A DNA stretch of 40,010 bases from Planctomycetota bacterium (GTDB lineage Bacteria; Planctomycetota; SZUA-567; H5-PLA8), in contig JBBRPR010000073.1 of the NCBI GenBank assembly GCA_038227875.1, positions 1 to 40,010 on the forward strand. The letters are read 5' to 3'. Shown here in pieces: positions 4,190 to 26,790 of this stretch (position 1 is its first letter; each line of letters starts with the position of its first letter). The position numbers were made by a program, and so were the translations under genes. The notes below the pieces were generated by a model, which searched no databases, had not been told where the DNA came from, and saw only the letters and a list, made by a program, of their open reading frames with translations.

Positions 4190-5533
4190 TCAGACGTACT
4201 TCGCGTTCCGGTGCTGCGGGAGGAAGAATTCGTGCAACAGTCGGTCGACCTGAAGCAGGCCGTCACGGTTGAGGCGGAGCGTGTCGCCGTCGATCGTCAG
4301 GAAGCCCCAATCGGAGAGCGTTTTCAGCGGCGCGGCGAAATCGTTCAGGACGTCGGCGCTGAACTTTGTGTTGAAGTAGCTGATGCTCGAATGGCCAAGC
4401 TTGAGTTGAAGAATGAACTCGCGGATCAGGCGTTCCTGTGCCGTCGGCGTGAGCGCGCGGTTGATCGGGAGTTTTCCTTCGGTCAGTGACGCGAGGTAGT
4501 CGGGGAACTGGTCGCGGTTCTGGACGTGCGTGCCGCCGAGATGGCCGAACGAGGCGACGCCCAGGCCCAGCAGATCGGCGCCGGCCCAAAGGCGGTCGCG
4601 GTAGACGAACTTTGTCTTCGCCTTGTTCTTGACCACGGTGTAGGCGCTGGCGACGGTGTAGCCGGCTTTTTCGAATTCGGTGAAGGCGTAGTTCACCCAC
4701 GCGCGCTTGGTGGCCCAATCGGCGACGGGCGCAGTCAGCTTTCCGGCGGCCTTCATCTCCTTGTAAATGGTCGTGTTGTACGGCACTTCCATCTGGTAAA
4801 TCGTGACGCTGTCGGGCGCCATGGCCAGCGCCTGGCTGACGGCCGATTGCCACTTCTCGGTGGTCTCTTCGACCATGCCGGCGATGAGGTCGATGTTGAT
4901 CTGCGCAAAATCCAGGCTGCGCGCGAAGCCGTAGGCGCGGTGGATTTCCTTGGAGAGATGCGCGCGGCCGTTGATTTCCAGAATGTGATCGTCGAAGTGC
5001 TCCACGCCAAGACTTAAGCGTGTGACACCGGCGTCTTTGATCACCTTCAGCTTGTGTTCGGTCAGCGTGCCGGGCTCGCATTCGAAGGTGACTTCCTCGG
5101 CTTCGTCCCAGGGCACTGACGCTTTCATTTTGCTGACCAGCCAGGTCAGCTGATCGGACGAGAGGTACGAGGGAGTGCCGCCGCCGAAATAGACGAAGTT
5201 GGCCTTGCGGCCCGCGACGTACGGCGTCTTGGCGTAGAGTTCCAATTCGTGCGCGGCGGCGTCGAGGTACGCCTTGATCTGGATCGAATCCTTGTCGGTG
5301 TAGACGCGAAAATAGCAGAAGTGGCAGCGCTTGCGGCAGAACGGAATGTGCAGGTAGACGCCCAGCGGCGTGGACGCGGCGGGTTTCTGGTCGAGCACTT
5401 TCAGGGCATCGCCGACGTAGTCTGGTTTCCAGAAGCTGAACGGCGGGTAGTTGGAGACAAAATAATTGCCGACGGTGGTGTCTTCGGAGTTCGGATTACG
5501 CGCCGGAGCGGTGGCGACATCGGTGGCACTCAT
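4190..5533 (-). CDS. HemN-like (class C) radical SAM protein
   Basis: YLHIPFCRKRCHFC, YFGGGTPS, RLSLGV, INIDLIAG, LGLGVASFG; HemN-type C-terminal region. Confidence 0.9.
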   Translation of the reverse strand: MSATDVATAPARNPNSEDTTVGNYFVSNYPPFSFWKPDYVGDALKVLDQKPAASTPLGVYLHIPFCRKRCHFCYFRVYTDKDSIQIKAYLDAAAHELELYAKTPYVAGRKANFVYFGGGTPSYLSSDQLTWLVSKMKASVPWDEAEEVTFECEPGTLTEHKLKVIKDAGVTRLSLGVEHFDDHILEINGRAHLSKEIHRAYGFARSLDFAQINIDLIAGMVEETTEKWQSAVSQALAMAPDSVTIYQMEVPYNTTIYKEMKAAGKLTAPVADWATKRAWVNYAFTEFEKAGYTVASAYTVVKNKAKTKFVYRDRLWAGADLLGLGVASFGHLGGTHVQNRDQFPDYLASLTEGKLPINRALTPTAQERLIREFILQLKLGHSSISYFNTKFSADVLNDFAAPLKTLSDWGFLTIDGDTLRLNRDGLLQVDRLLHEFFLPQHRNAKYV

Positions 5534-5542
5534 GACTGAACC

Positions 5543-6679
5543 TCATTTCCCAGGGGAATCCGACTTTCCGAACGCGTAGAGCAGGCCGTCGCTGGCGCCG
5601 ATCACGAAAATTCCGTCGGCGACAGCTGCGGAGCTGTCAATGGCCGAGCCGATTTCGTAGTTCCAGACTTCTTTGCCGTCGGCCAGAGTCAGAATGTAGA
5701 CGCGCCCGTCGTCTGAGCCGACCACGATCTTGTCGCCGGCGATCACGGGAGAACTGTCGACGCTGCCGCGCGCGGTGAAGGTCCAGAGTTCCTTTCCCTT
5801 CTCGCGATCGAAGCAGTGCACGCATTTGTCGCGTCCGCCGATGACGACCTTTTCCTTGTTCACGGCGGCAGAGGAGAAGAACGGAAACGCGTGCGGATTT
5901 TCGAAGTGCCAGACGATTTCGCCCTTCTTCATGTCCGCGGCGATGACTTCGTTGCCGTAATGGCCGACGTAAGCGATGTCGCCGTAAACGGCGGCGCTAG
6001 CGGCGATCGGGTTGCCGACGCCCACGGCATTGGTTTCGCTGCCGCTCTTGACGTCCACCGCGTGGAGCGCGCCATCGCAGCCGCCGAAGATCGCCACGCC
6101 GCCGGCGATCGCGGGAGCTCCGTTGACGTAATTGCTGGTCGGGAACGTCCAGAGCCCCTTCCCTGTCAGCGCATCCATGCAATGCAAACTGTTGTCGTAC
6201 GAGCCGACAATGATCTTGCCGTCGACGTAATTGGGCGCGCCCTTGATGTCGCCTTGGGCTTCGTAGCGCCACTTTTCCTTGCCGGTTTCCGCTTCGACGG
6301 CGTAGACAAGGTGATCGGAACAGCCGATGTAAATGAGTTTGTCGACGACGCAGGGCGAAGATTCGATTGGGCCACCGGCCTTGAACTGCCAGATCTTCGT
6401 GCCGTCGGATTTTTTCAGCGCATAGAGCGAATCGTCCAGCGACGCCACATAGATGCGGTCGCCGACGATGCACGGCGAGCCTTTGATCGGCGCTTCGGAT
6501 TTGAACGTCCAGAGCAGCTTCGGTTTTTCCGGAAGCACTTCCGTGGTGACGCCCGTCAACGCGGGATTGCCGCGGAACATCGGCCAACTCTGCTTGTCAT
6601 CGGCAGCGCGGCTGTTCTGAGCCACCAGCAACACACACGCAAGTCCAGCCAGAACACAAGAAATGAGGATTCGTTTCAT
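5543..6679 (-). CDS. Secreted PQQ-like/BamB-like beta-propeller repeat protein
   Basis: Signal peptide, WPMFRGN, repeated SSP...G..D..LYA...TG...W blades. Confidence 0.9.
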   Translation of the reverse strand: MKRILISCVLAGLACVLLVAQNSRAADDKQSWPMFRGNPALTGVTTEVLPEKPKLLWTFKSEAPIKGSPCIVGDRIYVASLDDSLYALKKSDGTKIWQFKAGGPIESSPCVVDKLIYIGCSDHLVYAVEAETGKEKWRYEAQGDIKGAPNYVDGKIIVGSYDNSLHCMDALTGKGLWTFPTSNYVNGAPAIAGGVAIFGGCDGALHAVDVKSGSETNAVGVGNPIAASAAVYGDIAYVGHYGNEVIAADMKKGEIVWHFENPHAFPFFSSAAVNKEKVVIGGRDKCVHCFDREKGKELWTFTARGSVDSSPVIAGDKIVVGSDDGRVYILTLADGKEVWNYEIGSAIDSSAAVADGIFVIGASDGLLYAFGKSDSPGK

Positions 6680-6682
6680 GGT

Positions 6683-7915
6683 TCACCATCCAGGTTCTTT
6701 GCGGCGTGACGCGGGCGGTTGAGGTTTGACTTTCAGCGTCTCGCGGCGGGATTTAAACGCGGCTTCATAAAGGGAGACGAAGTCGTCGGCGGTGATCTTC
6801 ACGGGATTAAAATTGGCCGTCCATTGGCGCGCGGCTTCCTGCGCCAGCGTTGGGATCGCATCGTGCTGAACGCCGCAATCCTTCAGGCTGTCGGGAATTT
6901 CGGCGGCGGTCAGCAGTTCGCAAATGCGCGAGAGCATCGCGTCGATGCTTTCGGCCGGATCGTCGTTGCGCCGCGCGAGACCCACGGACGCGGAAAGGTC
7001 GACGTAGTGCTGCAGCGTGCGCGGATCACGGCTGTTGAAGCGGACGACGTGCGGCAGCATCATCCCGACGGCCTGGCCGTGAACGATATTGTAGTGCGCG
7101 GTGAGCGGATTGGCCGCGGAGTGGACGGCACCGAGCATTGACTGCGCGATAGCCGTGCCGCCGTAGGCGGAGGCCAGGAGCATGCGCCCGCGCGCGGGAA
7201 GATCGGCGGGTGATTTCAGCACCGTCTCCAGGCTGCCTTCCGCCAGCTTCCACGATTCGCGTGAGAAGAGCTGCGAGACGGCGGTGTTAACGTTGGTGAC
7301 GTGGGCTTCCAGCGCGTGCGTAATGGTGTCGATGCCAGTGTTGGCGGTGACGCGCTGGGGCTGCGACAAGGTCAGCAGCGGATCGAGCAGCGCTACTTTG
7401 GCGTAGGCCTTGTCGTCACCGCAGGCCATTTTCTGGTGCGTGGCTTCGTCGGAGATCAGGGCGAACGATTGGCATTCACTGCCGGTGCCGGCGGTGGTCG
7501 GGATGGCGATCAGCGGGAGCATCGCCTTGGCGGCCTTGTTGACGCCCCAGTAGTCGGCCATCTTGCCGCCGTTGGTGAGGATGAAATTGGAGCCCTTGGC
7601 GGTGTCCATGCTGCTGCCGCCGCCGAGTCCGACGATGAAATCGATGTCGTGCTGGCGCGCGGCGGCGACGCAATCGGCGACGTGCTGCGTGTTGGGATTT
7701 TCGCGTACCTTGTCGTAAACGAACGCGGCCAGGCCGGCTTTGACGATCGATTGTTCGGCGCGCGCCGCGTGCCCGGCTTTGGCGATGCCCGAATCGGTCA
7801 CGACCAGCGCGCGCTTGCCGCCGTACTGGCGCACGAGTTCACCTAGCGTATCGATCAGGCCGTCGCCGTACATCAGGCGCGTCCGGGAGTGAAAATCGAA
7901 GCGCCTTTCCGGCAT
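6683..7915 (-). CDS. Iron-containing alcohol dehydrogenase
   Basis: GLGGGSSMDTAK, IPTTAGTGSE, GIDTITHALE, GAVH...VHG. Confidence 0.93.
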   Translation of the reverse strand: MPERRFDFHSRTRLMYGDGLIDTLGELVRQYGGKRALVVTDSGIAKAGHAARAEQSIVKAGLAAFVYDKVRENPNTQHVADCVAAARQHDIDFIVGLGGGSSMDTAKGSNFILTNGGKMADYWGVNKAAKAMLPLIAIPTTAGTGSECQSFALISDEATHQKMACGDDKAYAKVALLDPLLTLSQPQRVTANTGIDTITHALEAHVTNVNTAVSQLFSRESWKLAEGSLETVLKSPADLPARGRMLLASAYGGTAIAQSMLGAVHSAANPLTAHYNIVHGQAVGMMLPHVVRFNSRDPRTLQHYVDLSASVGLARRNDDPAESIDAMLSRICELLTAAEIPDSLKDCGVQHDAIPTLAQEAARQWTANFNPVKITADDFVSLYEAAFKSRRETLKVKPQPPASRRKEPGW

Positions 7916-7918: not shown

Positions 7919-9358
7919 TTATCCGCGCCTTTCGCTGACCAGAATCGCCCGCTGGCGGTAAAGAAATTCGAACAGGTTTCCTTCGTGTGGCTGATCCCAC
8001 GCCACCTGGATCGTCGAAATCGGGCCGATGTTCAAGCGGTCCACGAGAGGAGAACACAGCAGCGCGTCGGTAAATTCCGCGTCCTTCGTGATCGCCGTCA
8101 CCACCAGCGAATGGCCGATGGTATTGAGCATATCCTTTTGGGGCACTTCTACAACACTGGCGTAGGGAAACAAAAATTCGCGGTTGGCCAGCGGATGGGC
8201 GAAGTTTTCGCAGTACACGATGGTCGGGCGCATGTACGTGCCGCCGTCGAGCACCTGCTTGCGGGGGCCGCCGCGGTATTCAGCAGTGACTTCCCGCGCG
8301 CCGGGGGTTTTCAGGCCTTCGTTGAGCGTGTCGTCGATCCAGTCGGCCATCTTGACGTTGGCGAAACCGGAGAGCGCCGCCGCCGGATCATCTGGCGTTT
8401 TCGCGCCGACGGGGCCGAGGCGTTTGCCGAGCTCTTCGGCGATTTCGCGGCCGTGGCGCGGGACGATCACCGCCGAGGCATTGACGCAGCTTCGGCCGCC
8501 GTTGCGCGAAATCGAATCGACGATCACGTCCATGTAATCGCGCCATGAATCGATGCAGTCTTCGCCGATGAGGATCTTGCTGCGCCCCGGCCCGTGAATC
8601 TGGACGCTCGGGTTGTTGGCCCAGCGCGCGGTGGTACCTTCATCGCCGAAGAGCAGCGCACGGCCGCAGGAGTTGACGATCTCCGCTGCGCCTTCGTGAT
8701 CGGTGGGATAGAAACCGAAGGCTTCGGCCGGAACGCCGGCCTTGATGAAGGCCTGGATGATGCGGAACGGCGTCCACGGTTCTTCGCGGCCGGGCTTCAA
8801 GATCACGGGAATCTTCAGCGCGATGGCCGGAATCCAGAGCGAATTGACTCCCGGCGAATTGCTCGGCAGGACCGCGCCCAGCGACTGCGTCACGGGAAAA
8901 AAGCTTACCGGTGCGCCGGCCTGTTCGCCGAGGCCTTCGTCGAGCGCGCGGAGATCGAGGCCGCGCGTCAGGCCTTTCAAAATCGTGCGCATTTCGACGA
9001 AGACGTGGTGAACCTTCTTCATGTTCTGCCGAACCATGTTGTGCGGCAGTCCGCTGGAGGCGGAGAGTGTCTTCACGTATTCATCGGGTGTCTGAGTCGC
9101 GCCTTCACCGACGGGCAGCGTGCCTTCCAGGAACAGTTGTCCGGCCTTGGCGCAGAGGGCGATCAGTTCTTCGGACTTCAATTTTCGCAATGCCGCGCGC
9201 GAAGCGGCGTACTTCGGCAGATCGCGCTTCACGATGCCGGCGTTGACCTGGCTCACGGCGGCGAGCTTTTCGCCGCTGCGGTGGTCGATGACGTCGGTGG
9301 TGTCAAGGCTGACGTAAGGCTTGCCGAGGCGAAGTGCGGGGATGCTTAACGGAGTCAT
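7919..9358 (-). CDS. ALDH-fold protein, GriD/EhpG-like acyl reductase candidate
   Basis: LPSNSPG, LKPGREEP, NGGRSCVNAS (catalytic Cys), REFLFP; HGPGRSK replaces ELGGK; start 9358 or 9379 is ambiguous because of the heptamer repeat. Confidence 0.85.
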   Translation of the reverse strand: MTPLSIPALRLGKPYVSLDTTDVIDHRSGEKLAAVSQVNAGIVKRDLPKYAASRAALRKLKSEELIALCAKAGQLFLEGTLPVGEGATQTPDEYVKTLSASSGLPHNMVRQNMKKVHHVFVEMRTILKGLTRGLDLRALDEGLGEQAGAPVSFFPVTQSLGAVLPSNSPGVNSLWIPAIALKIPVILKPGREEPWTPFRIIQAFIKAGVPAEAFGFYPTDHEGAAEIVNSCGRALLFGDEGTTARWANNPSVQIHGPGRSKILIGEDCIDSWRDYMDVIVDSISRNGGRSCVNASAVIVPRHGREIAEELGKRLGPVGAKTPDDPAAALSGFANVKMADWIDDTLNEGLKTPGAREVTAEYRGGPRKQVLDGGTYMRPTIVYCENFAHPLANREFLFPYASVVEVPQKDMLNTIGHSLVVTAITKDAEFTDALLCSPLVDRLNIGPISTIQVAWDQPHEGNLFEFLYRQRAILVSERRG

Positions 9359-9418
9359 TTTCCATTTTCCATTATTCATTTTCCATTTTCCATCGGAGCT
9401 TCATCACGCGAAGCTCCG
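9356..9418. repeat. Heptamer tandem repeat (CATTTTC x5, one variant) plus adjacent 9-bp-stem hairpin
   Basis: 9356-9390 CATTTTC CATTTTC CATTATT CATTTTC CATTTTC; 9394-9418 CGGAGCTTC-ATCACGC-GAAGCTCCG. Confidence 0.9.
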
Positions 9419-9439: not shown

Positions 9440-10525
9440 TCAGTACACTCCTTCGACCACTTTTTTCTCCAGCATTCCAAATGGCCGAACATCCCGCACA
9501 CCGTCCCACGGATACAGCGTGCAGGGCGGACGGCGGATGCATTCGTCGCGCTCAAGGAAGCGGGGCATGAAGAATTCCTTGGTCAGCGTGGTCAATTCAA
9601 CGCGGCCCCATTCGCCGTAGCCGACGGTCTGATCGGGATTCTTGGGGTCGATTACGCGCAGGACGGCGCGGGGCTGTGGCGCGAAGTACGTGGCGCTCCA
9701 GTTGTCTTCCGGTTCCAGCGGCTTGCTGCAGGCCAGGCCCATTAGCGTGTTGCCGTAGGTCGGCACGAACGCGGCGCGGTTTTCGAGAACTTCTTCAGTC
9801 AGGAAACGGATCATCTGCGGCGTCATCGACGTACCTCCGCAGAAAACGCCTTTAATACCAGCCTCTGTGACGTTGATCTTGTTGCTGAGCGCTTCGAGCA
9901 GCTTGGGCGTGGTGAAGAGGCAGTGGATACCTTTGCGATTTTTAAGCTGCGTTACGGCCTGGTCGATGACGTGTTCCTTGTATTCGTTGGCCTGGTCGAA
10001 TTTCTTCAGCGCCAGCAGCTTGACGACCCAGCGCGGATCGAGGTCGACGTGGTAACACGAACCGCCGCGCACGTTGGCCAGATGTTCGATCGCCAGACGC
10101 AGGCGGCGCGGACCGGTGGGACCAAGCATCAGCCACTTCGAGCCCTTCGGAAAGAATTCGTCGTTGAGTGTCGCGGAGAATTCCGTGTAGTCGACCTTAT
10201 GGTCTTCCCAGCTCACGCGCTGCTTGGGCATACCGGTAGTGCCGCCGGTTTCAAAGATGTGAAACGGGCGTGTCTTGTAAGCGTTGGGCACCCAGCGTTC
10301 ATTGGGTTCGTCGCGCAACCAGTCGTCCTGAAAATGATCGAAGTGCTTCAGGTCGGCGACGGACTTGACCTTCTCGACGGGATTCCAGCCGGCCTTCTTC
10401 GCCCAATCGAGCCAGAACGGCGTTCCGGTTTCAGGCGAAAAATGCCACGCAATGATTTCCCGCAGATGCGCGTCGAGTTTCTGCGAAGCCGTCTGGACGG
10501 CCGATTCCAACCCTGCTGCAGTCAT
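9440..10525 (-). CDS. EhpF/GriC-like adenylate-forming enzyme (short ANL superfamily member)
   Basis: WHFSPETGTPFWL, ETGGTTGMPK P-loop, PTGP, DLDPRWV, TTPKLL, PRFLERD and terminal VVEGVY match motifs I recall from Pantoea EhpF. Confidence 0.85.
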   Translation of the reverse strand: MTAAGLESAVQTASQKLDAHLREIIAWHFSPETGTPFWLDWAKKAGWNPVEKVKSVADLKHFDHFQDDWLRDEPNERWVPNAYKTRPFHIFETGGTTGMPKQRVSWEDHKVDYTEFSATLNDEFFPKGSKWLMLGPTGPRRLRLAIEHLANVRGGSCYHVDLDPRWVVKLLALKKFDQANEYKEHVIDQAVTQLKNRKGIHCLFTTPKLLEALSNKINVTEAGIKGVFCGGTSMTPQMIRFLTEEVLENRAAFVPTYGNTLMGLACSKPLEPEDNWSATYFAPQPRAVLRVIDPKNPDQTVGYGEWGRVELTTLTKEFFMPRFLERDECIRRPPCTLYPWDGVRDVRPFGMLEKKVVEGVY

Positions 10526-14225: not shown

Positions 14226-14281
14226 GCTTTCCTTTCCCGCAACCGAAGTCCAAATCACACCGTCGGAACTGACTGCCGCGC

Positions 14282-16714: not shown

Positions 16715-16743
16715 GATTATACCTATACGTACTAATTTCACAA
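16715..16743 (-). promoter_or_regulatory. Putative sigma70 promoter of the 9-gene operon overlapped by a palindromic operator
   Basis: Minus strand TTGTGA-16 nt-TATAAT (16743-16716); 16715-16736 matches palindrome ATTAGTACGTATACGTACTAAT at 17/22. Confidence 0.65.
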
Positions 16744-17338: not shown

Positions 17339-18832
17339 ATGGCCATCACCATTGAACGGTGCCCGCATTGCGGCGCGCCATACATGAGCGCAATGTTGCC
17401 GGGAGAAAATCCGGCCGAGCGGAGTTGTTCGAGCTGCAATAAGCGCGCCGGCGATCCGCGCGGTACGACTGCGACGTCCGCTCCCCGCCCCATTTCCACG
17501 GCCAGTTCCGACGATGAATTGTCGCTGCAGCCCATCGAGACCGCGGCTTCGGCCGGTGTCATCGTCACGCACAAACAGCCCGACGCCCGCGGACAGCTTG
17601 TGGGACAGATTCAGTCCAGAGGCAACGCGGGAGTTCCCGGGCTGCCCAGCGACGCCCCCGATTACGAACCGCCGCCGAAAGCGCCGCTGTTTACCGTCGC
17701 ATCGACGATCCGGCTGGTGGTCCTGCTGGTTGTGCTGGTGCTCGTTTCGAAATTGGTTTACGGCGTCTACCAACGGGAATTCGACAAGCCGATCGTTCCG
17801 ACCGCTCCGCCGCCGGCCGTGCCGACCGTGGCCGAAATGACCAAGCCGCCGCCGACTCCAATCAAACCAGTGGCCGCAACGCCGCCGCCCAAGCCCGTCG
17901 AGAAACCGCCGGAGGTGGTCGTCAAGCCTGCCGGTCCTCCCGCCAGGCCAAAAGAACTGCTGAACGACGGTGGTGGAGGGAACGAGGATGTCAACGCGCT
18001 CATTGCCGGCGGAAGCCGCCAGAAATCGCGGAATACCGACGACGACGCGCCGGACGTCGAGGTCAAGAAGACTCCGCCGCAGCCGCCGCCCACGGCTGGA
18101 AAAACCGGAACGGTGACGCCGCCGGGATTACCACCCGATAACTCCAAAGACCCCATGATCGCGCTGCTTGAAAAAAACAAGGCAGGCGCGCAACCGCCGC
18201 CAGGTCCGAACCCTCCCGATTCGCCACCCAACACGATCAACAATCCGCCGCCCCCGGGGGGCACGCCACCGATTACGCCGGGCGTCAATGCTCCACCGCC
18301 CAAGACCGGGATGATGCCGGAAGGTCCCATCGTCAGCACGACGCCTGTGGTGATTCTGCCGTTGCCAGGCACCATCCCCGGCGCCTCCTTCCTCCGCGAT
18401 TACAACGGCTGGTTCTGCCGCGATTACGATGAAGCGCGCTCCCTGCGCGAAAATGTCTTTCATGGGCGCAACAACGTCGTGATGTTGAAACCGATCCAGC
18501 GAGGCCCAGCGAAACTCTGTGCGCTGATCGAAGTTCCGAAAGCCTTCGCCAACAAGAAGCCGGAATTGGTTTTCGAAATCACCTCCAAAGATCCCGCTCA
18601 CGTCTGGCTGCTCCACGCCACCATCGAAGGCGCGGAAGTGCTGCGGCAGACGGAAGTGAAGATCACCGACTCCAAACCGTGGATCGAAAACCGCATTGAT
18701 CTGACCAACTTCTCCAACCGACGTTTCCTGTTGCAGCTGGAAATTCTGCCGCCGGCCCCCGGAGGCAAGCCGGGCTCGGACGTGGATTACGCCGGGTACA
18801 TCCGGAACATGCATCTTGTTTGGGCGAAGTGA
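17339..18832 (+). CDS. Hypothetical membrane protein: N-terminal Zn ribbon, one TM, Pro-rich linker, C-terminal globular domain
   Basis: CPHC...CSSC, LVVLLVVLVLV TM, long Pro-rich region. Confidence 0.75.
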   Translation: MAITIERCPHCGAPYMSAMLPGENPAERSCSSCNKRAGDPRGTTATSAPRPISTASSDDELSLQPIETAASAGVIVTHKQPDARGQLVGQIQSRGNAGVPGLPSDAPDYEPPPKAPLFTVASTIRLVVLLVVLVLVSKLVYGVYQREFDKPIVPTAPPPAVPTVAEMTKPPPTPIKPVAATPPPKPVEKPPEVVVKPAGPPARPKELLNDGGGGNEDVNALIAGGSRQKSRNTDDDAPDVEVKKTPPQPPPTAGKTGTVTPPGLPPDNSKDPMIALLEKNKAGAQPPPGPNPPDSPPNTINNPPPPGGTPPITPGVNAPPPKTGMMPEGPIVSTTPVVILPLPGTIPGASFLRDYNGWFCRDYDEARSLRENVFHGRNNVVMLKPIQRGPAKLCALIEVPKAFANKKPELVFEITSKDPAHVWLLHATIEGAEVLRQTEVKITDSKPWIENRIDLTNFSNRRFLLQLEILPPAPGGKPGSDVDYAGYIRNMHLVWAK

Positions 18833-18870: not shown

Positions 18871-20721
18871 GTGAAGACGAACCGAATCCGGTGCTCCGCC
18901 GTCGGCGCAGCGCTACTGGCGGCGTTGGTTTTCGGCGCCGCGTGGGGTGGCGAGGATGCCCCCGGCGGGGTCTGGTCGTTTCGCAACGGGTTTGGCGGGC
19001 ACTTTCCGGACGCCACGCCGCCTCTGAGTTGGAACGCCACTGAAAACGTCGCGTGGCACCTGCCACTCAAAAAACGAGCGAACGCGTCTCCAATTATTGT
19101 CGGCGACAAAGTCTTCACGCTCGAAGAGCCGAGCACGCTGTTGTGTGTCAATAAAGCCGATGGCCGAGTGCTCTGGTCGCGCCCGAACACGCTTTCGGAT
19201 GTGCTCGGAGAAGGTGCGAAAGATCGCGCCGCTTTGCCGCGCACAGATTGGCTCAGCACGTACGGATACACGACGCCGACACCGGTCTCCGATGGAATGC
19301 ATGTCTGGTGCGTGTTCGGGCATGGCATCGTCGTCTGCTACGATCTTGATGGCACGAGAGAGTGGTTCGCGGAATTCAATGTCGCCGACAAGATCAGTGG
19401 CGTTGCTGTTTCGCCATGCTTGATTGATGGCGTGCTGCTTGTTGGCGGCAAAGGCGATGATCGACTGTGCGGATTCGACGCTGCGACCGGGAAGAAGCTC
19501 TGGCACACCGACGAGGGCACGCAGGAAGGTTCCTGCGTGCCGATCACGCTGAACGGGAAGCATTACGCCGTGGCATCCGCGGGAATCCTGCTGGATCCGC
19601 ACACGGGCCAGATCCTGCAGCGCAACCTGCTCGGGGCGGGATTTCAAGGCGACGGTTCCAAGCTGCCGGTGAACTGGGGACCAACCGTGCTGGTGGATGG
19701 AAATACGGCGTACTTCCACGCGCACTTTCAGCCCAATCAATACAACACGGTACTTCGCGCCGTGAAACTCGATGCCGATGCAGCGCCGCAGCAGCTCTGG
19801 GAATTTTATCCCAACACCCATTCAGACATCCGCGGTCGCATGGGAAATTCGCCGCTGCTGCTCAACGGACTGCTCTACGCGATCAAAGACAGCGGCATGC
19901 TGCAAGTCTTCGCTGCCCCGACCGGCGCGCTCGTATATGAACAGCAATTGCCGCGGCATTCGTATGCCAGCCTCGCGTTGGCCGGGCCGTACATCTACGC
20001 GTTCGGCGGCAGCATCGTCACGATCTTCAAACCCGGCAAAGTCTTCGAGCAAGTGGCGCAGTTCAAACACGGCTTCACGGATTTCATCGCCTCTCCGGTT
20101 TTCGAAAATCGACGCCTGTATTTCCGCGACAGCACCGGATTGTGGTGCATCGAAGCCCCGGCCGCAGCCGCCCCCGTATCTTCGGTGGCATCTACAGCAG
20201 CGCTCAGCGACACCGGTCCCGACCTCGCCGACACCGCGAAGACTGCACCGCTGCTCTCGTATTCGGAGTGGCTGCTGGAGTACGACCAGACGCGCCTGCC
20301 ACTGCGCCGCTTCAGTTTGATTTTCGAATGGTCCTTCGCGGCGCTGGCAATCGTATTGGGCCTCTGGGCCGTGCGACGCGCGGCCGCGCCGCCCCGTTTT
20401 CGCGTGCTGACCGTCTTTGCCATGCTGCTCGCGGGATTGACGCCGTTATTGATGTTCACCGATCGCGTCGGCAATGCGTATTATCCCGTCGGCGTGTGGT
20501 GCGTCGCCGGCGGCCTGATCGCGTGGAAGTACCTCACACAACCCACGCCAGCAGTTCACCGCAAACATCTACGCCCGGCGCAAAGAGAATTTTCGTCGTT
20601 TGCAAAAGCGTACATGCTCTCGTGGGGCTGGCTGCTCGGCGGAGCCGCCGGCCTGGCGATTCACCACATCCCCTTTCAACTCACACTGATGTGGTACGTC
20701 CTCACCGGCTGGCAGAAATAA
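18871..20721 (+). CDS. PQQ-like beta-propeller protein with C-terminal TM helices
   Basis: Signal peptide, WSFRNG...PPLSWNATENVAW, ASPIIVGDKVF, TPTPVSDG; about 4 hydrophobic segments at the C-terminus. Confidence 0.82.
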   Translation: MKTNRIRCSAVGAALLAALVFGAAWGGEDAPGGVWSFRNGFGGHFPDATPPLSWNATENVAWHLPLKKRANASPIIVGDKVFTLEEPSTLLCVNKADGRVLWSRPNTLSDVLGEGAKDRAALPRTDWLSTYGYTTPTPVSDGMHVWCVFGHGIVVCYDLDGTREWFAEFNVADKISGVAVSPCLIDGVLLVGGKGDDRLCGFDAATGKKLWHTDEGTQEGSCVPITLNGKHYAVASAGILLDPHTGQILQRNLLGAGFQGDGSKLPVNWGPTVLVDGNTAYFHAHFQPNQYNTVLRAVKLDADAAPQQLWEFYPNTHSDIRGRMGNSPLLLNGLLYAIKDSGMLQVFAAPTGALVYEQQLPRHSYASLALAGPYIYAFGGSIVTIFKPGKVFEQVAQFKHGFTDFIASPVFENRRLYFRDSTGLWCIEAPAAAAPVSSVASTAALSDTGPDLADTAKTAPLLSYSEWLLEYDQTRLPLRRFSLIFEWSFAALAIVLGLWAVRRAAAPPRFRVLTVFAMLLAGLTPLLMFTDRVGNAYYPVGVWCVAGGLIAWKYLTQPTPAVHRKHLRPAQREFSSFAKAYMLSWGWLLGGAAGLAIHHIPFQLTLMWYVLTGWQK

Positions 20722-20814: not shown

Positions 20815-21765
20815 TTAATTAGTGCCGATGCTCTCGACGCCCAGCCCGTAAAACGTGTATTCGCAATCGGAAATCTGTTCGAGCGCAAACCCCGCATAGC
20901 CGCCTTGCGCGTCTTCCAAACTGCGCGCGTATTTCAGTGCGCCTTCGACGTAGCGCGGGTCGAGTTTTCCGAGCATCTTCAGCGTGAACAGTCCGGTGTA
21001 GGTGCTGAGCAGATCGGCGATCGGCGCGGCTGGTGTGGCGTAAAATCCGCCCTCACCGCTGAACATGCTGGCGATGAATGCCGCGTGAGGTTCGGGATCG
21101 ACAGGGTCTTCAAGAATCACCGAGAGCGCAATGGCCGCCGCGCAACCGTTGGTGCCCGGCCGCTTGCTGTAGCGATTCTCAAGAAATCCGCCGCTGCTCT
21201 GCGTCAGGCTGCGCAGCAATTCGCGTCCGTGTTCGGGCTTGGGCAGATCAACGCCCATCCGCATATAAGCGCAGGCCGCCAGAAAAGTGTGATAGAGACT
21301 GCCGCACGCATCCGTATCCGTCTTGGCCCAGCCGCCGTCTTCGCGACGTAGCGCATCGAGCCGCGAGACCGTGGCGTCGCGCGCCGCTTGCCGCTCCGTT
21401 TCGGAAAGCGCCGCTCCCCCGCCCTCTTCGCACAACGCCCACGCATCCCACCACGATGCCGCCATCACCGCATCGCTGAACGCGCCCTTTGGCTGTCGAA
21501 TGCGCGCCGCCGGTGATTCGTTCAACAACGCGCGGAGGTATTGCTGCGCACGCGATGCGACATCGGACGAGAGCTCATTCAGCGAAGAGAGACTGCGCAG
21601 AGCGAAGGTCGTGTAGTAGAGCTCCGAGTTGCCGCGCCGGTTGGCAAACGCGCCGTCCGCATTTTGTCGCGCGAGAATCCATGCCGCGTGGCGCGCGCGA
21701 TATTCGGCGGGCGTCGCAGCGAGACCCATGCGAACGTCGTCGCGAAGGAGAGCGAGGAAACTCAT
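20815..21765 (-). CDS. Prenyltransferase/squalene oxidase repeat protein (single alpha/alpha barrel)
   Basis: QNADGAF..ELYYTTFAL, DGGW..SLYHTFLA, EGGF..DLLSTYTGL, GGY..SDCEYTFYGLG repeats. Confidence 0.87.
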   Translation of the reverse strand: MSFLALLRDDVRMGLAATPAEYRARHAAWILARQNADGAFANRRGNSELYYTTFALRSLSSLNELSSDVASRAQQYLRALLNESPAARIRQPKGAFSDAVMAASWWDAWALCEEGGGAALSETERQAARDATVSRLDALRREDGGWAKTDTDACGSLYHTFLAACAYMRMGVDLPKPEHGRELLRSLTQSSGGFLENRYSKRPGTNGCAAAIALSVILEDPVDPEPHAAFIASMFSGEGGFYATPAAPIADLLSTYTGLFTLKMLGKLDPRYVEGALKYARSLEDAQGGYAGFALEQISDCEYTFYGLGVESIGTN

Positions 21766-21775: not shown

Positions 21776-23698
21776 TCAATCGAGCAGCGTCGCAGCCAGG
21801 AACGTGAACAATGCCATCAATCCGTCGTGGTTCACGGACTCCACGGCTTTCATCGCGCGCACGCGCTGATTGTCGGCGAGCAACGCCGCCTGCAGCGGGA
21901 TCTCGTGCTTGAAGTAGATCTCCTTCAGGCGCTCAAGCTTCACAGTTGTTTGCGGACCTTCGCGGGCGGCCTTGAGTAGGTCGGCGCGTTCGGCGTCGTT
22001 GGCGGCTTCAAGCGCGAGCGCGTAGAGCAGCGTCGGACGGCCTTTCAGGATGTCGCCGCAGGCTTCGACCTTATTGCTGATATCGCCTTCGACGTCCTTC
22101 AAGTCGTTCTGGATCTGATACGCGACGCCGAGGTGCTTGGAGAACTCCGAAAGTTCGCGATCCCATTTGCCGTCGCCGCCGCCTAGCACCACGCCCGAAT
22201 ACAGCGCTGCGTCGAACGCCGGTGCCGTTTTCAACGCGTAAAGTCGCAGACATTCGATGCCCTGAATGTTCTTCTCGCCGCCTTTGCGCCAGAGCAACTC
22301 AGCGCCCTGGCCTTCGGAGAGCCGCACGTGCGAGGCGGCCATCTTCTTGAGAATGCGCACAGATTTTTCCGCGCCGATGCTGTCGAGTTCATCGGCGATC
22401 AAGCGGTAGCCTCGCCCGAGCAGGTAGTCGCCGATGTTCAGCGCGATCGGGACGGAGTGCGACTTATGGAGCGTTTCGGTGCCGTAACGGAAATCGTCGT
22501 CGTCTTCGATGTCGTCGTGAATCAGCGACGCTTTGTGAAAAATCTCCATCGCAGCCGAGATGCGTTTGACGCTCATCGGCACTTCTTCTTCGTCGGTCAG
22601 CGCCTGCCAGGCCGCGGCCGTGACGAACGGGCGGAAGCGCTTCCCGCCCTTGCGCATCCACGCCAGCGAAATGCGTTCGGCTTCGGCGACCTTGTCGCCC
22701 TTCGGAGCACTCCCGCGTTCGGACGGCACGATCTCCGCCAGCGGCTTGGGATCAAAGTAGTGGCCGACATCGCGCAGCAGCGGCACGAAACTGCGCGTGC
22801 GTTTCGCGCCGGTCTTCTGATAGCCGATCGCGGAAAGCACCCAGTCTTCGTCGACTTCGGTGTTGTGACAGGTGTCGCGCAGCAGCGGAATCGCCAGCGA
22901 GGGGATGCCAACCTGCAGCACCTTGTCGAATGCCTTCTCGAGCACGTTCAAGCAGGCGATGCCAAGGATGCCGTCGACTTCACCCGTGGCGATCAGCTTC
23001 AGCACAATCGGCGTGCCTTCGGCGACGAGAACGTTGTAGCCCATGCGTTCGCCGACGCTGTTCAAGTCAGCGATCGAACAGAGTCCGCAGTTGTTGCAAT
23101 GGAGCTGGACGTCGTCCATTTTCGCAGTGCAGTTTTCCGCCTGCTTCAGGCAGTGCGGCATCAGGAAGAGGCGTTTTTCAAACGGAATCGCGGCAAACTC
23201 TTCGCGCCAGTACTCGTTGTTGATCAGCACCATCGCAAAACCAATAAAAGTGTGATCGTAGCCGAGCGGCTTAAGCAGTTCTTCGGCGGCCTTGAACAAG
23301 ACCTGCTTGTTCGGCGGCCGGTTGCGCGGAATTTTCGCCGCGACGGCAACGGCCTGTTTGCGGATCAGTTCGCGCTGCTCTTTGGATTCCGGAATGGATT
23401 TGAAATTCTCGCCGGCGGGCCGCCATTCGTCATGGCGGTACGCTACTGGCGCACGGGCTTCGACGGTTCCCGACTCGGGATGACGGATCAATTCCTGAAC
23501 GAGATTCGATTCCGACTGCGGAACGTTGGCCACTTTTTCCAGCACGCCGAAATTACCGCCAGGAAGTTGCACGCCTTTGGCCGCGGCGACCGCAAGAGCG
23601 TCAAGCGGACCTTTTGACGAGACCGGCCGCGCTTCTGGAACGGCAACAGGAGCGGCTGCAATGGGGAGTGGAGTGGTCTGTACGTCGGTGGTTTTCAT
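21776..23698 (-). CDS. DUF116 domain fused to a trans-polyprenyl synthase domain
   Basis: Cys-rich PHCLK..C..HCNNCGLCSI..GIAC (DUF116-like); GGKRFRP, HDDIEDDDDFRYG, GQGAEL, KTA, YQIQNDLKD; ATG 23698 overlaps the upstream stop (ATGA). Confidence 0.88.
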   Translation of the reverse strand: MKTTDVQTTPLPIAAAPVAVPEARPVSSKGPLDALAVAAAKGVQLPGGNFGVLEKVANVPQSESNLVQELIRHPESGTVEARAPVAYRHDEWRPAGENFKSIPESKEQRELIRKQAVAVAAKIPRNRPPNKQVLFKAAEELLKPLGYDHTFIGFAMVLINNEYWREEFAAIPFEKRLFLMPHCLKQAENCTAKMDDVQLHCNNCGLCSIADLNSVGERMGYNVLVAEGTPIVLKLIATGEVDGILGIACLNVLEKAFDKVLQVGIPSLAIPLLRDTCHNTEVDEDWVLSAIGYQKTGAKRTRSFVPLLRDVGHYFDPKPLAEIVPSERGSAPKGDKVAEAERISLAWMRKGGKRFRPFVTAAAWQALTDEEEVPMSVKRISAAMEIFHKASLIHDDIEDDDDFRYGTETLHKSHSVPIALNIGDYLLGRGYRLIADELDSIGAEKSVRILKKMAASHVRLSEGQGAELLWRKGGEKNIQGIECLRLYALKTAPAFDAALYSGVVLGGGDGKWDRELSEFSKHLGVAYQIQNDLKDVEGDISNKVEACGDILKGRPTLLYALALEAANDAERADLLKAAREGPQTTVKLERLKEIYFKHEIPLQAALLADNQRVRAMKAVESVNHDGLMALFTFLAATLLD

Positions 23699-25467
23699 GC
23701 CGCTGTCGCCGCCTCGATGCCATGCCGCGTTTTCGCCAGCGCGCCCAGCCCGCCGAGCGCGTAATAAAGCGGATACAATTCCTCGTAGTACCAGAGAACC
23801 GCAAAGTAAAACCCAATCGGTGCCGGATTCCACGACCCGTCCGCGCGCTGATGTTCGACCAGCCACTGCGCCGCGCGCTGGCATTCGACGTCGTCGAACG
23901 TGTAGCCTTGCGCAACAAGTGCTCGAAGCGCGAGTCCGGTTTCTTCAGCGGTGCTCGGTGCGCTGGATGTGCCGCCGAAACCGCCGTCCGAGTTTTGGAT
24001 GGAGAGCAGCCATTTCAGTGCCCGCTTCTTCATCGCGTCGGCACACGTTACACCGTTACACGCCAGGAGCACATGAACCGTACCATAGGTTTCATTACTT
24101 TCGTGCGAACTGCTTTCGCAACCAAACCACAATGGACGAAACGCACCGTCATCACGTTGAACGCTGGATAAATACGCGTATCCAGCAGTGAATACCTCGC
24201 GTGTAAGCCCGAACGAATTCTGCGCCATCAGTTTGTATTGGTCGGGAAACAGCGCGCGCAAGGCGTGAGCCGTCAAATCCGGAGCGCTACGGTCGAATGG
24301 CAATTTCTCCCAGCCGCGGCAGAACGTAGGCCATCCACCGTTCCGGTTCCGCAATTGAATCAGCCATTCCGTTCCCGAAGCGATTGCTGCGTGATTCTCC
24401 GGCACGCCCAAATGCCGCAGCGCAATAATCGCCCCCGACGTGTCATCCACATCCGGCACGCTTCCCGCGAGGTGATTCCATCCCCACCCGCCCGGCTGCG
24501 TGTCGGAGTACACCGACCGCGTCATGCATTGCTGCTGCAGCAACCAATCGCGCGTCGTCGCGCGTTCAGATTCGCTGAGCGCCGTCTCAAGCAACCCGCC
24601 AGCGGCGAGCGCATCGATGGCGCGCGTCGTGTTCCAGACGGATAGATTCACTTCGACCGGCCAGGATCCATCCTCGCGCTGCGTGCTGATCAGGAACTTC
24701 CGCGCGTTCTTCGCAATCGGATGATCGGCGCGGCCGGCCGACTTCAGGCCGATCAAGCAGAACGCGGTGATCGGAGACGCTTCCAAGTAGCCGCCGCTCT
24801 CTGGCTGCATCTTTAAAATCGCCTCGAGCGCCTGTTCCGTAATGCGGTTCCGCCACCAGCGGATCGGCGCAAACCAACTGGGCGCTTTCGCATGGCGCGA
24901 CAAGCCGACGCAGACTAGCGCCGGCAGCGCGTAACTGACGACCGGCAGCCGCAGTGCACCCATCAACGAGCGCGGCGCCAGTGCAAGTTCAAACGGGAGC
25001 GCATCCACATCGTTCCACGTGAACGATTGCAGCCCTGCATGCGCTGCCGTCATCCGAATCGGAACCTGAAACGTCAAATCGCTGCCGTACACGCGCCGCA
25101 AACCTTCGCGCACGCCGCCGAGCTTCTCCGTGTATGCCAGTCCGCACTTCCGCGCGTCTGCGGAGAGAAACGCGTTGCACGCGTCCGCACAGAGCACGAG
25201 CAGCGACGCGGCGAGATTGCTTTTGCTGATCTCCGTGTCGCCCCAGCCGCCGTCGGCGTTCTGCGTCTTTGAAAGATAAGCGTAAGCGGAAGTCCAGCGC
25301 GCCGCCGGAAGATCGTCGCGATCCAGCGCGCACAGCGCCACGGCTGTTCCCAGCGGAGACGACGCCAGCCGACCTTCCCAATATCCCGCCGAATTTCGCC
25401 CCGCGACCAGCGCGTTCAATGCGCGATCGACAGAAGACGCCAATTCCGTGGGGGTAAAGTTCGCCAT
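23695..25467 (-). CDS. Squalene-hopene-cyclase-like class II terpene cyclase
   Basis: PDVDDTSGA (DxDD), QW repeats QNADGGW, QREDGSW, QNSDGGF, QRADGSW; GGWPTFC, PDLTAH. Confidence 0.88.
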   Translation of the reverse strand: MANFTPTELASSVDRALNALVAGRNSAGYWEGRLASSPLGTAVALCALDRDDLPAARWTSAYAYLSKTQNADGGWGDTEISKSNLAASLLVLCADACNAFLSADARKCGLAYTEKLGGVREGLRRVYGSDLTFQVPIRMTAAHAGLQSFTWNDVDALPFELALAPRSLMGALRLPVVSYALPALVCVGLSRHAKAPSWFAPIRWWRNRITEQALEAILKMQPESGGYLEASPITAFCLIGLKSAGRADHPIAKNARKFLISTQREDGSWPVEVNLSVWNTTRAIDALAAGGLLETALSESERATTRDWLLQQQCMTRSVYSDTQPGGWGWNHLAGSVPDVDDTSGAIIALRHLGVPENHAAIASGTEWLIQLRNRNGGWPTFCRGWEKLPFDRSAPDLTAHALRALFPDQYKLMAQNSFGLTREVFTAGYAYLSSVQRDDGAFRPLWFGCESSSHESNETYGTVHVLLACNGVTCADAMKKRALKWLLSIQNSDGGFGGTSSAPSTAEETGLALRALVAQGYTFDDVECQRAAQWLVEHQRADGSWNPAPIGFYFAVLWYYEELYPLYYALGGLGALAKTRHGIEAATAA

Positions 25468-25562
25468 TCCGCCTTTCGCCTTACTTCACTTCACCTATAC
25501 GACGATCAACCCACACCATGGTTGAATTTGAGACTTTTCGAGCCGATTCCTGAAGCCGTCCG

Positions 25563-26756
25563 CTATCCCAGCGCTGCCATTCCAAAGAACACCTGTTTCT
25601 TCAAGAACCGGTAGACCCAGTAGTCTTCGGGAATTTCGTGGTCCGGATTGTGATGGCTGTGCCGCGGCGTGATCGCGTTCAGTTCCTGAAAGGCCGTGTT
25701 GCGCCCGGAGTAGTCCGCCGCGCCCGACGTCTTGATGAATTCGTGGAGCTCCTGCGGATGCTCCAGGATCACGCAGCCTTTCGTCCGCTTCTTCACAAAC
25801 TTCGTGAAGCCGCGGAGGTACTCGCTTTCGTTGATCGTCTTGTACAAGTCTCCGCCATTATCGCTGACGCGTTCCTTCGCGAACGAAAGCGCGGGGCAGA
25901 TTTCGATGCTGCCCTGCGGCCCGATGTGATACCCCAGCCCCATCGCCGCGGGGCAGAAGGCCTCGCCTGTCGCGGTCCAGTAGGTATCGATGATCAGGAT
26001 CGGGTGTTTGCGGCGCAACTCCAGCAATCGCTTGCGCATCCACACCAATTGCTCCTTCTTGACGCAGTATTCCGGATGCGGCGGCGTGCCCATCGGGCGG
26101 TAGACGTAGTACCAGATGTACATCGCGCCGCGGTCGATGAAGTGCTGTACGTATTCATCGCTCATCACCTCCGCCATATTACTCCCAGTGGCGGTGCAGG
26201 CGGTTCCAAACAAAATGCCCTTTTTCTTCAGGCGCTTCATGCCTTCGTCGGCGGCTTCGAACACGCCCTGACCGCGGCGCAGATCGTTCTGCTCCTTGAA
26301 ACCATCGATGCTGATCAGCGGCGTGACGTTGCCGACTTCGGCCAGCCTCTTCACGTTCTCTTCGGTGAACAGCATGCCATTGGTGATGGTCTGGAAATAA
26401 CAATCTTTATGGCGCGCGAAGACATCGAAGATGCCTTTGTGCATGAACGGCTCGCCACCGAGCAGCGTGTAGTAGAAGGCCTTGTTCTTTTTACCGGTGT
26501 TGATGATGCCGTCGAGATTCTCCGGCGTCATGTAGTTGGCGTTGCCTTCTTTTTCGACCCAGCAGCCGTGGCAGCGCAAATTACAGGTGTTGGTCAGCGC
26601 GATGAACATGAACGGCGGGTAGAGCTCGTCGTTCTTCATGCGTTTTTTGTATGCCGAAATAGCACGCATGCCCTTGAACGCATAGAGGTACCCCGCTTTA
26701 AGCGCCAGCCGGGGCGAGAGTTCAGTGGCCAGTCGATAGGCATAGCGGGTCAGCAT
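25563..26756 (-). CDS. Radical SAM protein with C-terminal Cys-containing (twitch/SPASM-like) extension
   Basis: TNTCNLRCHGC, LGGEPF, TNG, ISIDG, FCPAA...IEICP...GCVIL. Confidence 0.9.
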   Translation of the reverse strand: MLTRYAYRLATELSPRLALKAGYLYAFKGMRAISAYKKRMKNDELYPPFMFIALTNTCNLRCHGCWVEKEGNANYMTPENLDGIINTGKKNKAFYYTLLGGEPFMHKGIFDVFARHKDCYFQTITNGMLFTEENVKRLAEVGNVTPLISIDGFKEQNDLRRGQGVFEAADEGMKRLKKKGILFGTACTATGSNMAEVMSDEYVQHFIDRGAMYIWYYVYRPMGTPPHPEYCVKKEQLVWMRKRLLELRRKHPILIIDTYWTATGEAFCPAAMGLGYHIGPQGSIEICPALSFAKERVSDNGGDLYKTINESEYLRGFTKFVKKRTKGCVILEHPQELHEFIKTSGAADYSGRNTAFQELNAITPRHSHHNPDHEIPEDYWVYRFLKKQVFFGMAALG

Positions 26757-26768
26757 GTTTTTACCTAA

Positions 26769-26790
26769 ATTAGTAAGCTTACGTACTATT
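26769..26790. promoter_or_regulatory. Putative MarR-type operator upstream of the terpenoid operon
   Basis: ATTAGTAAGCTTACGTACTATT, 18/22 to the same palindrome as 16715-16736; 12 bp upstream of the ATG. Confidence 0.6.

Follow-up and report, generated by a model that had tools for sequence, protein, structure and literature searches.

In the LuxC/LuxE fatty acid reductase, an acyl-activating enzyme passes its acyl group to a reductase of the aldehyde dehydrogenase (ALDH) fold, which works through an active-site cysteine and yields the aldehyde. EhpG plays the reductase's part beside EhpF in the D-alanylgriseoluteic acid pathway of Pantoea agglomerans. In the grixazone pathway of Streptomyces griseus, according to passages of PMC10179220, GriC forms the acyl-AMP of an aryl acid and GriD reduces it to the aldehyde. 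A pair of this type is encoded on a Planctomycetota contig of 40,010 bases, analysed here over its whole length (the window), as part of a nine-gene operon, A, predicted to import and reduce a carboxylate. The same contig carries a divergent marR gene and a four-gene operon, B, around a predicted class II terpene cyclase. We describe A and B as two conserved modules, each also found alone, that recur together in the phylum and may contribute to one terpenoid pathway.

In the hopanoid core, squalene-hopene cyclase (SHC) and HpnH, a class II cyclase with the DxDD motif is encoded with a radical S-adenosylmethionine (SAM) enzyme of the MoaA/NifB/PqqE type, as in operon B. The sporulenol pathway of Bacillus (heptaprenyl diphosphate synthase, YtpB and SqhC) and the epoxy-polyprenyl cyclases Lon15 and AtoE employ a cyclase of the SHC superfamily with a head-to-tail polyprenyl-derived substrate in place of squalene, which is the arrangement that operon B resembles. 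Passages of PMC7306690 (Santana-Molina et al. 2020) describe SHC-like cyclases of Planctomycetes, Verrucomicrobia and Acidobacteriota, with a polyprenyl synthase nearby in both main text and supplement; passages of a triterpenoid cyclase preprint (PMC12324236) treat the same clade. Neither set of passages reports a function, and both present the clade as a possible source of undiscovered polycyclic terpenoids.

The adenylating enzyme of operon A (A5) shares with GriC and EhpF a stand-alone architecture of the ANL type, without the usual C-terminal subdomain, and stands beside an ALDH-fold reductase (A6). Unlike GriC/GriD and EhpF/EhpG, the pair lies within a nine-gene operon with an importer of the sodium:solute symporter (SSS) family, three secreted propellers, an iron-containing alcohol dehydrogenase (Fe-ADH) and a HemN-like radical SAM enzyme, together with MarR, and no phenazine or 3-amino-4-hydroxybenzoate (3,4-AHBA) genes are found here. 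Activation by A5 followed by ALDH-fold reduction through a cysteine of A6 would resemble LuxC/LuxE; however, Pfam (E 0.001) gave AMP-binding for A5, Aldedh for A6 and no Lux-named family, and there are no LuxD or luciferase genes. Operon B differs from the hopanoid core in that its cyclase (B2) stays below the squalene-cyclase equivalog cut-offs (126 against 431.1 bits for the hopene-cyclase model TIGR01507, 141 against 322.7 for TIGR01787), and in that its neighbour is a head-to-tail isoprenyl-diphosphate-synthase (IDS)-like enzyme, not squalene synthase. Its radical SAM enzyme (B1), tried as HpnH (adenosylhopane synthase), was rejected: TIGR03470 gave 50 bits against a cut-off of 225 and matched only the radical SAM core, residues 34-197. 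Unlike the sporulenol pathway and Lon15/AtoE, operon B comes without any YtpB-type synthase, epoxidase or UbiA-type transferase that we could see here.

Judged by the passages describing the SHC-like clade, B2 agrees with it in taxa, length (590 aa, within 550-700 aa), DxDD motif and nearby polyprenyl synthase, and is a candidate member of this orphan kind. The enzyme families of the window are all known, and PMC7306690 has already reported SHC-like cyclases paired with a polyprenyl synthase; the further partners of the cyclase given below and its link to an acid-reduction operon come from this analysis. The terms 'radical SAM' and 'DUF116' are absent from the one supplement file of PMC7306690 that was searched. 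The literature searches made here, bioRxiv supplements aside, returned no characterised pathway with this gene set, as the initial annotation of the window had supposed, and no paper with a B unit of seven genes, the conserved A operon of nine and its MarR operator, or the recurrent, reshuffled A-B linkage.

Two operons and a marR gene

The window is the entire contig C73 of a metagenome-assembled genome (9.3 Mb, 176 contigs, 88% complete). Profile scans with Pfam, at the threshold above, and NCBIfam upheld all 13 gene-family assignments of the initial annotation (A1-A9 and B1-B4); in the NCBIfam scan all of these proteins stayed below the equivalog cut-offs. Signal peptides of A1, A2, A8 and M3 were judged by eye from a hydrophobic, signal-like segment at the N-terminus. 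The minus strand carries operon A from 16660 to 4190, its genes closely packed or overlapping:

A1, 14282..16660, minus strand: secreted PQQ_2-type propeller, 792 aa (PQQ_2 3e-26); first gene of operon A, a conserved first position
A2, 12627..14285, minus strand: secreted PQQ_2-type propeller, 552 aa (PQQ_2 6e-25); second position kept in A operons
A3, 12364..12600, minus strand: small symporter partner, 78 aa, two transmembrane segments; its stop overlaps the start of A4
A4, 10559..12364, minus strand: SSS family symporter, 601 aa (SSF 1.6e-34, 119.9 bits, cut-off 22.8)
A5, 9440..10525, minus strand: EhpF/GriC-type stand-alone adenylating enzyme, 361 aa (weak AMP-binding Pfam match)
A6, 7919..9379, minus strand: ALDH-fold protein, 486 aa, with a predicted GriD/EhpG/LuxC-like role (Aldedh 4e-15, 55.7 bits)
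A7, 6683..7915, minus strand: Fe-ADH, 410 aa (Fe-ADH 8e-51, ADH_Fe_C 2e-39)
A8, 5543..6679, minus strand: secreted BamB/PQQ_2-type beta-propeller, 378 aa (Beta-prop_ACSF4 279 bits, cut-off 133; PQQ_2 1e-46)
A9, 4190..5533, minus strand: HemN-like (class C type) radical SAM enzyme, 447 aa (Radical_SAM 9e-20, HemN_C)

Between the operons lie three plus-strand genes, of which M2 and M3 had gone unmentioned in the initial annotation of the surroundings of marR:

marR, 16757..17299, plus strand: MarR-family regulator, 180 aa, divergent from operon A
M2, 17339..18832, plus strand: protein of 497 aa with an N-terminal CxxC pair, one hydrophobic segment and a Pro-rich linker
M3, 18871..20721, plus strand: secreted PQQ_2-type propeller, 616 aa (PQQ_2 5e-19)

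Operon B occupies the minus strand from 26756 to 20815:

B1, 25563..26756, minus strand: radical SAM enzyme, 397 aa, with a MoaA/NifB/PqqE/SkfB-like core (Radical_SAM 2e-19)
B2, 23695..25467, minus strand: class II terpene cyclase of SHC type, 590 aa (SQHop_cyclase_C 7e-45, SQHop_cyclase_N 9e-19)
B3, 21776..23701, minus strand: fusion of DUF116 (Cys-rich alpha/beta) with an IDS-like domain, 641 aa (polyprenyl_synt 1.3e-43, DUF116 6e-37)
B4, 20815..21765, minus strand: alpha-alpha-toroid protein of the prenyltransferase/terpene-cyclase type, 316 aa (Prenyltrans 5.5e-13)

A Logan contig from the probable source run covers 15869-21500 with zero differences and bridges A1-marR-M2-M3-B4, so this adjacency is not one assembler's artefact; the contig stems from the same read data as the assembly and is not independent evidence for the adjacency. 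In relatives, three further co-directional genes precede B1-B4 and encode a GcvH-like protein, a CobW-family GTPase and a protein of ~320 aa with two 4Fe-4S motifs (Fer4). The GcvH-like protein has a lipoyl-lysine segment, ESTKA, recognised by eye. The window's genome has the three genes dispersed over contigs C27, C22 and C29.

Modules A and B occur apart and recur together

Gene content was compared in 41 related genomes (B3 matches at E <1e-100; the tallies include the unpublished G017, on which no single claim here depends) and gene order in 20 loci taken from relatives. B3 occurs in 19 of the 41 genomes and A5 in 12, with seven holding B3 and no A5. Genes A1-A9 and the divergent marR form one conserved block in the seven loci of the window's family that carry marR (L015 ends at a contig edge). 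The order A1-A9 is kept in these seven and also in several other families (G205, G171, G052 and G413, and G191 with A9 displaced upstream of A1). These last five genomes (G191 on one contig) are 94-100% complete and hold the full A1-A9 set, contiguous in four, with no module B found; three of them (G171, G052 and G413) have a marR ortholog divergent from A1. Since A occurs without B, its substrate cannot be a B product. As a side observation, locus L011 (G001:C61) shows A1-A5 only, with no A6-A9 match in the 8 kb downstream of A5.

Across the phylum, in an even sample of 401 Planctomycetota genomes with A5 orthologs counted at E <1e-100, A5 is found in 79 genomes and B3 in 100: 62 hold both, 17 only A5, 38 only B3 and 284 neither, with a Fisher odds ratio of 27 that is inflated by relatedness. 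Both genes share a contig in 23 genomes and lie within 25 kb of each other in 10, which fall in six families (f1, represented by the window's genome only, f18, f29, f71, f87 and f91). The co-occurrence and clustering expected from the initial annotation are real in several families, but each module is also found alone, and the two stand apart in every relative examined from the window's own family.

The clusters differ in layout from family to family. In f18 (G112, G271 and G392) a unit GcvH-CobW-Fer4-B1-B3... is divergent from A1-A5, and in f71 (G141) the same extended B operon is divergent from A5-A6. Family f29 (G384 and G215) has one co-directional array, Fer4-B1-B4-B2...B3-A1-A2-A3-A4-A5(-A6-A7), while in f87 (G390) A5-A6-A7-A8-A9-GcvH-Fer4 are contiguous beside B1/B2/B3, and G222 reads B2-B3-A3-A4-B4, with the symporter pair between B3 and B4.

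A wider set of 80 named loci around the DUF116-IDS fusion, from Gemmataceae, Pirellulaceae, Planctomycetaceae, Isosphaera, Gimesia, Verrucomicrobia and Acidobacteriota, gives a similar picture. B2 is adjacent in 55, Fer4 in 33 and the GcvH-like gene in 29; an A gene is present in 18 of the 80, or 11 of the 37 with full flanks. In eight loci A9 directly precedes GcvH-Fer4-B2-B3, and the Gemmata-like locus L096 reads A6-A7-A8-A9-GcvH-Fer4-B2-B3. An A8-like propeller appears in seven (four of the seven records are titled Verrucomicrobia), directly before the GcvH-like gene in six. This recurrent, reshuffled clustering supports a functional coupling of A and B, because interleaving in differently ordered arrays is otherwise hard to explain.

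MarR and its predicted operators

The window contains the sequence TACGTACTA exactly two times, once in the promoter region of A (16726) and once in that of B (26780). By chance 0.02 copies would be expected, and none of 100 shuffles had two or more. Each copy lies within an imperfect palindrome. The shared upstream palindrome of the initial annotation holds in so far as the sequence is confined to these two promoters, but the B site is a partial match:

Predicted MarR operator, 16716..16743, no strand: ATTATAC-N6-GTACTAAT, core TACGTA, 14-41 nt upstream of the marR ATG
Operator-like site at B, 26766..26793, no strand: AAATTAGTAAGCTTACGTACTATTTC, 10-37 nt before the B1 ATG, between operon B and a divergent glycoside hydrolase family 123 (GH123) gene

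The A operator overlaps the -35 and -10 elements of a promoter-like site for operon A (minus strand, TTGTGA-16-TATAAT, 10/12 match), in what is, judged by its predicted elements, the classical layout of a MarR repressor. A palindrome of the same 7-6-7 type (ATnrTAC-N6-GTAynAT) is present in the marR-A1 interval of the window, of seven family loci and of three loci of other families (G171, G052 and G413, the genomes that keep marR beside A), and the boxes span four families. Its left arm coincides with the -10 hexamer, so that its conservation is partly due to promoter function. When a matrix built from six A boxes is scanned over the genome, the A site ranks first; other high hits adjoin unrelated genes, such as an ArsR-family gene (C48) and a major facilitator superfamily-like transporter (C7, identified by eye).

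The marR product matches MarR_2 (1.8e-12, 47.6 bits, cut-off 27) and MarR (1.6e-11, 44.3 bits, cut-off 24.6). Its closest named relatives in NCBIfam are regulators of aromatic-acid pathways, HpaR and Saro_0803, all with scores below cut-off. We conclude that MarR is module A's ancestral regulator, and it very likely controls A.

The B site has one perfect half-site and a weaker, poor left half, with a 7-nt spacer against 6 nt at A. Its right half, GTACTAT, is identical to the half-site of the MarR box in G171, and the whole matches the site heading the extended B operon of G014 at 21 of 22 bases by manual count. G002 and G010 have similar boxes in the gap between their GcvH-like and CobW genes, and a B-side box is found in four of eight family genomes. 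With up to one mismatch, TACGTACTAWTTTC has four matches in the 9.3 Mb genome, against one for the reversed control pattern: the A site, the B site, a position just upstream of an M3-like propeller gene (C6) and one between convergent genes (C47). MarR might well control B too in the window's genome, though here we hesitate.

Two further hits of the A-box matrix are TACGTA-type boxes similar to the MarR operator, at G000:C6:131645 and G000:C40:57390, directly upstream of secreted propeller genes 27% and 24% identical to M3; these two genes may be further members of the regulon.

Operon A: predicted import and reduction of a carboxylate

A5 aligns over its full length with EhpF in the PDB (3hgu/3l2k, E 5.2e-45), residues 10-361 falling on residues 14-369 of 3hgu. 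Its adjacency to A6 is conserved across relatives, and A6 keeps the cysteine of its catalytic segment, NGGRSC(V/I)NA, in 21/21 homologous segments. The carboxylate reduction proposed earlier for the EhpF-like, ALDH-fold and Fe-ADH enzymes fits this homology. By family, A5, A6 and A7 should convert a carboxylate to the aldehyde and then the alcohol, R-COOH to R-CH2OH, after import by A3/A4.

For the importer, both genes of the claimed pair, SSS symporter and small partner, are present, but the partner is the 78-aa open reading frame (ORF) at 12364-12600. The previously named 91-aa ORF (12407-12682) was dropped in its favour, its translation being Arg/Pro-rich and not membrane-like. A3 matches DUF3311 weakly (22.2 bits, below the cut-off of 30), and its position directly upstream of A4 is kept in other genomes. 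A4 itself contains, between transmembrane regions, a repetitive insert of ~70 residues (~150-225) with many Lys, Pro, Val and Asp, at which tblastn alignments to many orthologs break.

The radical SAM enzyme A9 matches HemN in the PDB (1olt, E 3e-33) and falls below the NCBIfam equivalog cut-offs for HemN (179.2 against 324.95), HutW/ChuW (189.6 against 400) and HemW (165.3 against 205.4). It has CRKRCHFC at position 66, with CxxxCxxC in 26/26 homologous segments, and YFGGGTPS in 25/25; GGGTP is the mark of the second SAM site.

A second EhpF-like gene, ~30% identical to A5, lies at G000:C5:91664-92692 and is followed by genes for an alpha/beta hydrolase and a class III aminotransferase (L127:7644-10731). 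This neighbourhood could give an acid-to-aldehyde-to-amine route, and no adjacent ALDH-fold gene was seen among the ORFs scanned.

Operon B: an orphan cyclase and its partners

B2 has DVDD at 339-342; of 76 segments examined, all 75 that are itemised retain the D-x-D-D-T core. It matches SHC in the PDB at E 1e-23, and a separate, more distant cyclase homolog lies on contig C4 of the same genome.

B3 most likely starts at 23701, not at 23884 as first annotated. Its first aspartate-rich motif, HDDIEDDD, is invariant in 12/12 aligned proteins and is the same in the commonest variants among 105 segments. The second motif reads NDLKD, not DDxxD, with the N invariant in 12/12 proteins and ND in all listed variants among 101 segments. 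Because the second DDxxD motif is absent, we file B3 as IDS-like and not as a proven chain-elongating synthase; its best NCBIfam match, IdsA, gives 127 bits against a cut-off of 468.

The predicted model of the DUF116 half (predicted local distance difference test score 86.5) consists of a helical cap and an alpha/beta domain with conserved cysteines. Foldseek, at E 0.001, matched it to no PDB entry, and domains of the B12-binding type are among the weak rows at the top; its best VIA-align Z is 5.5, to designed Rossmann folds, a generic alpha/beta arrangement. The model is in line with the prediction of DUF116 as a flavodoxin-like, Cys-rich electron-transfer domain in PMC5898192, which also notes a DUF116 fusion in Pirellula staleyi, Psta_0175.

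B1 keeps CxxxCxxC in 30/30 homologous segments. Its N-terminus is ~36 aa shorter than in relatives, the protein aligning to residues 37-432 of the G010 ortholog, and a protein atlas search with it returned generic radical SAM clusters only. B4 shows a weak match to the beta subunit of Rab geranylgeranyltransferase (E 4.5e-4). Together, the Fe-S and radical SAM partners suggest oxygen-independent chemistry.

Several details of B loci elsewhere deserve mention. In the window's genome, the displaced GcvH-like gene (G000:C27:83241-85206; L125:6242-8206) lies on one strand between a GH44 glycoside hydrolase gene and a gene for a 481-aa DGC-domain protein (PF08859). In G006, an inserted gene for a GNAT acetyltransferase (L005:7881-8339) separates B1 from B2. 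ORFs of 161-175 aa beside B in relatives were rejected as antisense artefacts of the GcvH-like gene.

A proposed modular pathway and its alternatives

We propose, tentatively, that A and B are autonomous conserved modules which, where both are present, may well serve as sub-modules of one modular terpenoid pathway, and which have been re-joined in the window. Its layout suggests that an A-marR locus was secondarily joined to an M2-B locus, because relatives hold A and B apart and an M2-like gene (M2 itself has zero Pfam or NCBIfam matches) is convergent to B4 in G009 and G015. An M3-like gene adjoins marR in G006 and G014.

In such a pathway, the secreted beta-propellers would work outside the cytoplasm, and the DUF3311-like A3 with the symporter A4 would import a carboxylate. 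A5 would activate it with ATP, A6, by way of its conserved cysteine, would yield the aldehyde from the activated acyl group, A7 would turn the aldehyde into an alcohol, and A9 could tailor substrate or product. MarR would repress by binding the palindrome over the operon A promoter, just upstream of its own gene. On the B side, the DUF116-IDS-like fusion would build or present a polyprenyl chain, which B2 would cyclise by protonation; B4, a candidate transfer protein, and B1 would transfer or tailor the chain, assisted in relatives by the GcvH-like carrier, the CobW GTPase and the ferredoxin-domain protein. B1 and A9 would be oxygen-independent tailoring enzymes fed by Fe-S partners. Where both modules are present, the alcohol or aldehyde from A would be joined to, or would modify, the cyclic polyprenoid of B.

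In its most explicit form, this proposal describes an oxygen-independent pathway of Planctomycetes-Verrucomicrobia-Chlamydiae (PVC) bacteria and Acidobacteriota, with GcvH-like, CobW and ferredoxin-domain partners. Its product would belong to an undescribed class of cyclic, non-squalene polyprenoids, the alcohol obtained from an imported acid being attached to a chain that the orphan SHC-like enzyme cyclises. We regard so specific a version as doubtful.

A number of observations weigh against a single modular pathway. In the window's own family, the distance from A to B1-B4 is 160 kb in G006 and 177 kb in G014, and the other relatives have the two on separate contigs. In f10, seven complete or near-complete genomes hold A5 and B3 0.9-4.7 Mb apart; with G048, G209 and G222 included, the distance is 0.5-4.7 Mb. 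The complete genome G353 has B1-B4 and no A5 match at E 1e-20. In the five A-only genomes, there is no match to the DUF116 region of B3 (E 0.001) or to the Fer4 partner (E 1e-5), and the B2 query finds weak matches of 24-33% identity or none; a GcvH query finds one match per genome (30-38% identity), which we take to be the housekeeping GcvH. The co-occurrence counts of A5 and B3 are not phylogenetically independent. No operator was found upstream of B in G006, G004, G009 or L047, and the B site, with its spacer and poor left half, is outside the top 40 genome-wide hits of the A-box matrix. With an importer and secreted proteins among its products, module A has the look of an operon for uptake and conversion rather than of part of a biosynthetic cluster; the gene scan of the window recognised no joining enzyme (UbiA-type or ABBA prenyltransferase); and even the chain-building role of B3, given its second motif, is a prediction.

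Much of this would also suit a coupling that is physiological only. A would then be a MarR-sensed system for uptake and reduction (detoxification or assimilation) of an environmental aromatic or aliphatic acid, and B would make a membrane lipid, a cyclic polyprenoid of hopanoid-like kind, both within one stress response (membrane-active weak acids, anoxia) and with no common intermediate. That each module is found alone in high-quality genomes, that no joining enzyme is evident, and that A carries an importer, secreted proteins and a MarR nearest, at scores below cut-off, to aromatic-acid regulators all speak for it, as does the usual production of membrane lipids by SHC-type cyclases; passages of PMC7306690 propose novel polycyclic triterpenes for the SHC-like clade. 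Against it stand the single co-directional arrays in which A and B genes interleave, with the SSS pair between B3 and B4, A9 before GcvH-Fer4-B2-B3, or B3 before A1. Because such interleaving is more typical of one pathway, we favour one pathway over mere co-regulation, and find the purely physiological link somewhat unlikely.

It is improbable that the modules have no functional relation, the window being a chance rearrangement, the clusters elsewhere inherited synteny and the motif a generic promoter element or one for another regulator. The separation of the modules in every relative examined from the family of the window's genome would agree with this, as would TACGTA-type palindromes that score well elsewhere in the genome, for example beside the ArsR-family gene on C48, and the overlap of the A box with the -10 hexamer; but passive inheritance does not explain clustering in at least six families, in varied orientations and gene orders including interleaving, or the presence of B3 in 62 of the 79 genomes with A5 against 38 of the 322 without.

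Least probable of all is the strict form taken by the initial annotation, one obligate MarR regulon of 13 genes that turns an imported acid into one hybrid product, a meroterpenoid or a cofactor: the 9-mer common to both promoters, the recurrent clustering and the strong co-occurrence favour it, but the modules are separable (17 of 79 A5 genomes are without B3 and 38 of 100 B3 genomes without A5), MarR travels with A even where B is not found and went undetected (E 1e-6) in those parts of other families' A-B clusters that were retrieved, the conserved B unit has seven genes, three of them scattered in the window's genome, and a B operator was found in just four of eight family genomes.

Other features of the window

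The GH123 gene (26916-28505), whose divergent promoter region is common with operon B, adjoins a gene on the minus strand for a bacterial alpha-2-macroglobulin of 2088 aa (28705-34971; MG2, A2M, TED and bMG10 domains). Further on, 36012-37972 on the plus strand encodes an extracytoplasmic function-type sigma factor (Sigma70_r2/r4_2), then a FecR-domain protein with a 3-keto-disaccharide-hydrolase-like domain. A tRNA gene (38081-38152), the single Rfam hit in the window, where no riboswitch was found, is followed by an ORF of the phage integrase family (38247-39854). Around this stretch (38081-39854) GC drops from ~0.62 to 0.43; the contig end is probably the edge of an integrated element.

Implications

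The function of SHC-like cyclases is an open problem in two papers on triterpenoid evolution (PMC7306690 and PMC12324236). Conserved partners of the cyclase are now defined, namely the DUF116-IDS-like fusion, the toroid protein, the radical SAM enzyme, the GcvH-like protein, the CobW GTPase and the ferredoxin-domain protein, and genes of this set repeatedly lie beside or among those of a nine-gene operon predicted to import and reduce carboxylates, for which a likely repressor and operator are identified. This gene set makes the question testable in cultivable planctomycetes; passages of PMC12324236 call Gemmata obscuriglobus genetically tractable. If true, the oxygen-independent polyprenoid-conjugate reading would tell what the SHC-like clade makes, and would offer a candidate source of orphan terpane biomarkers.

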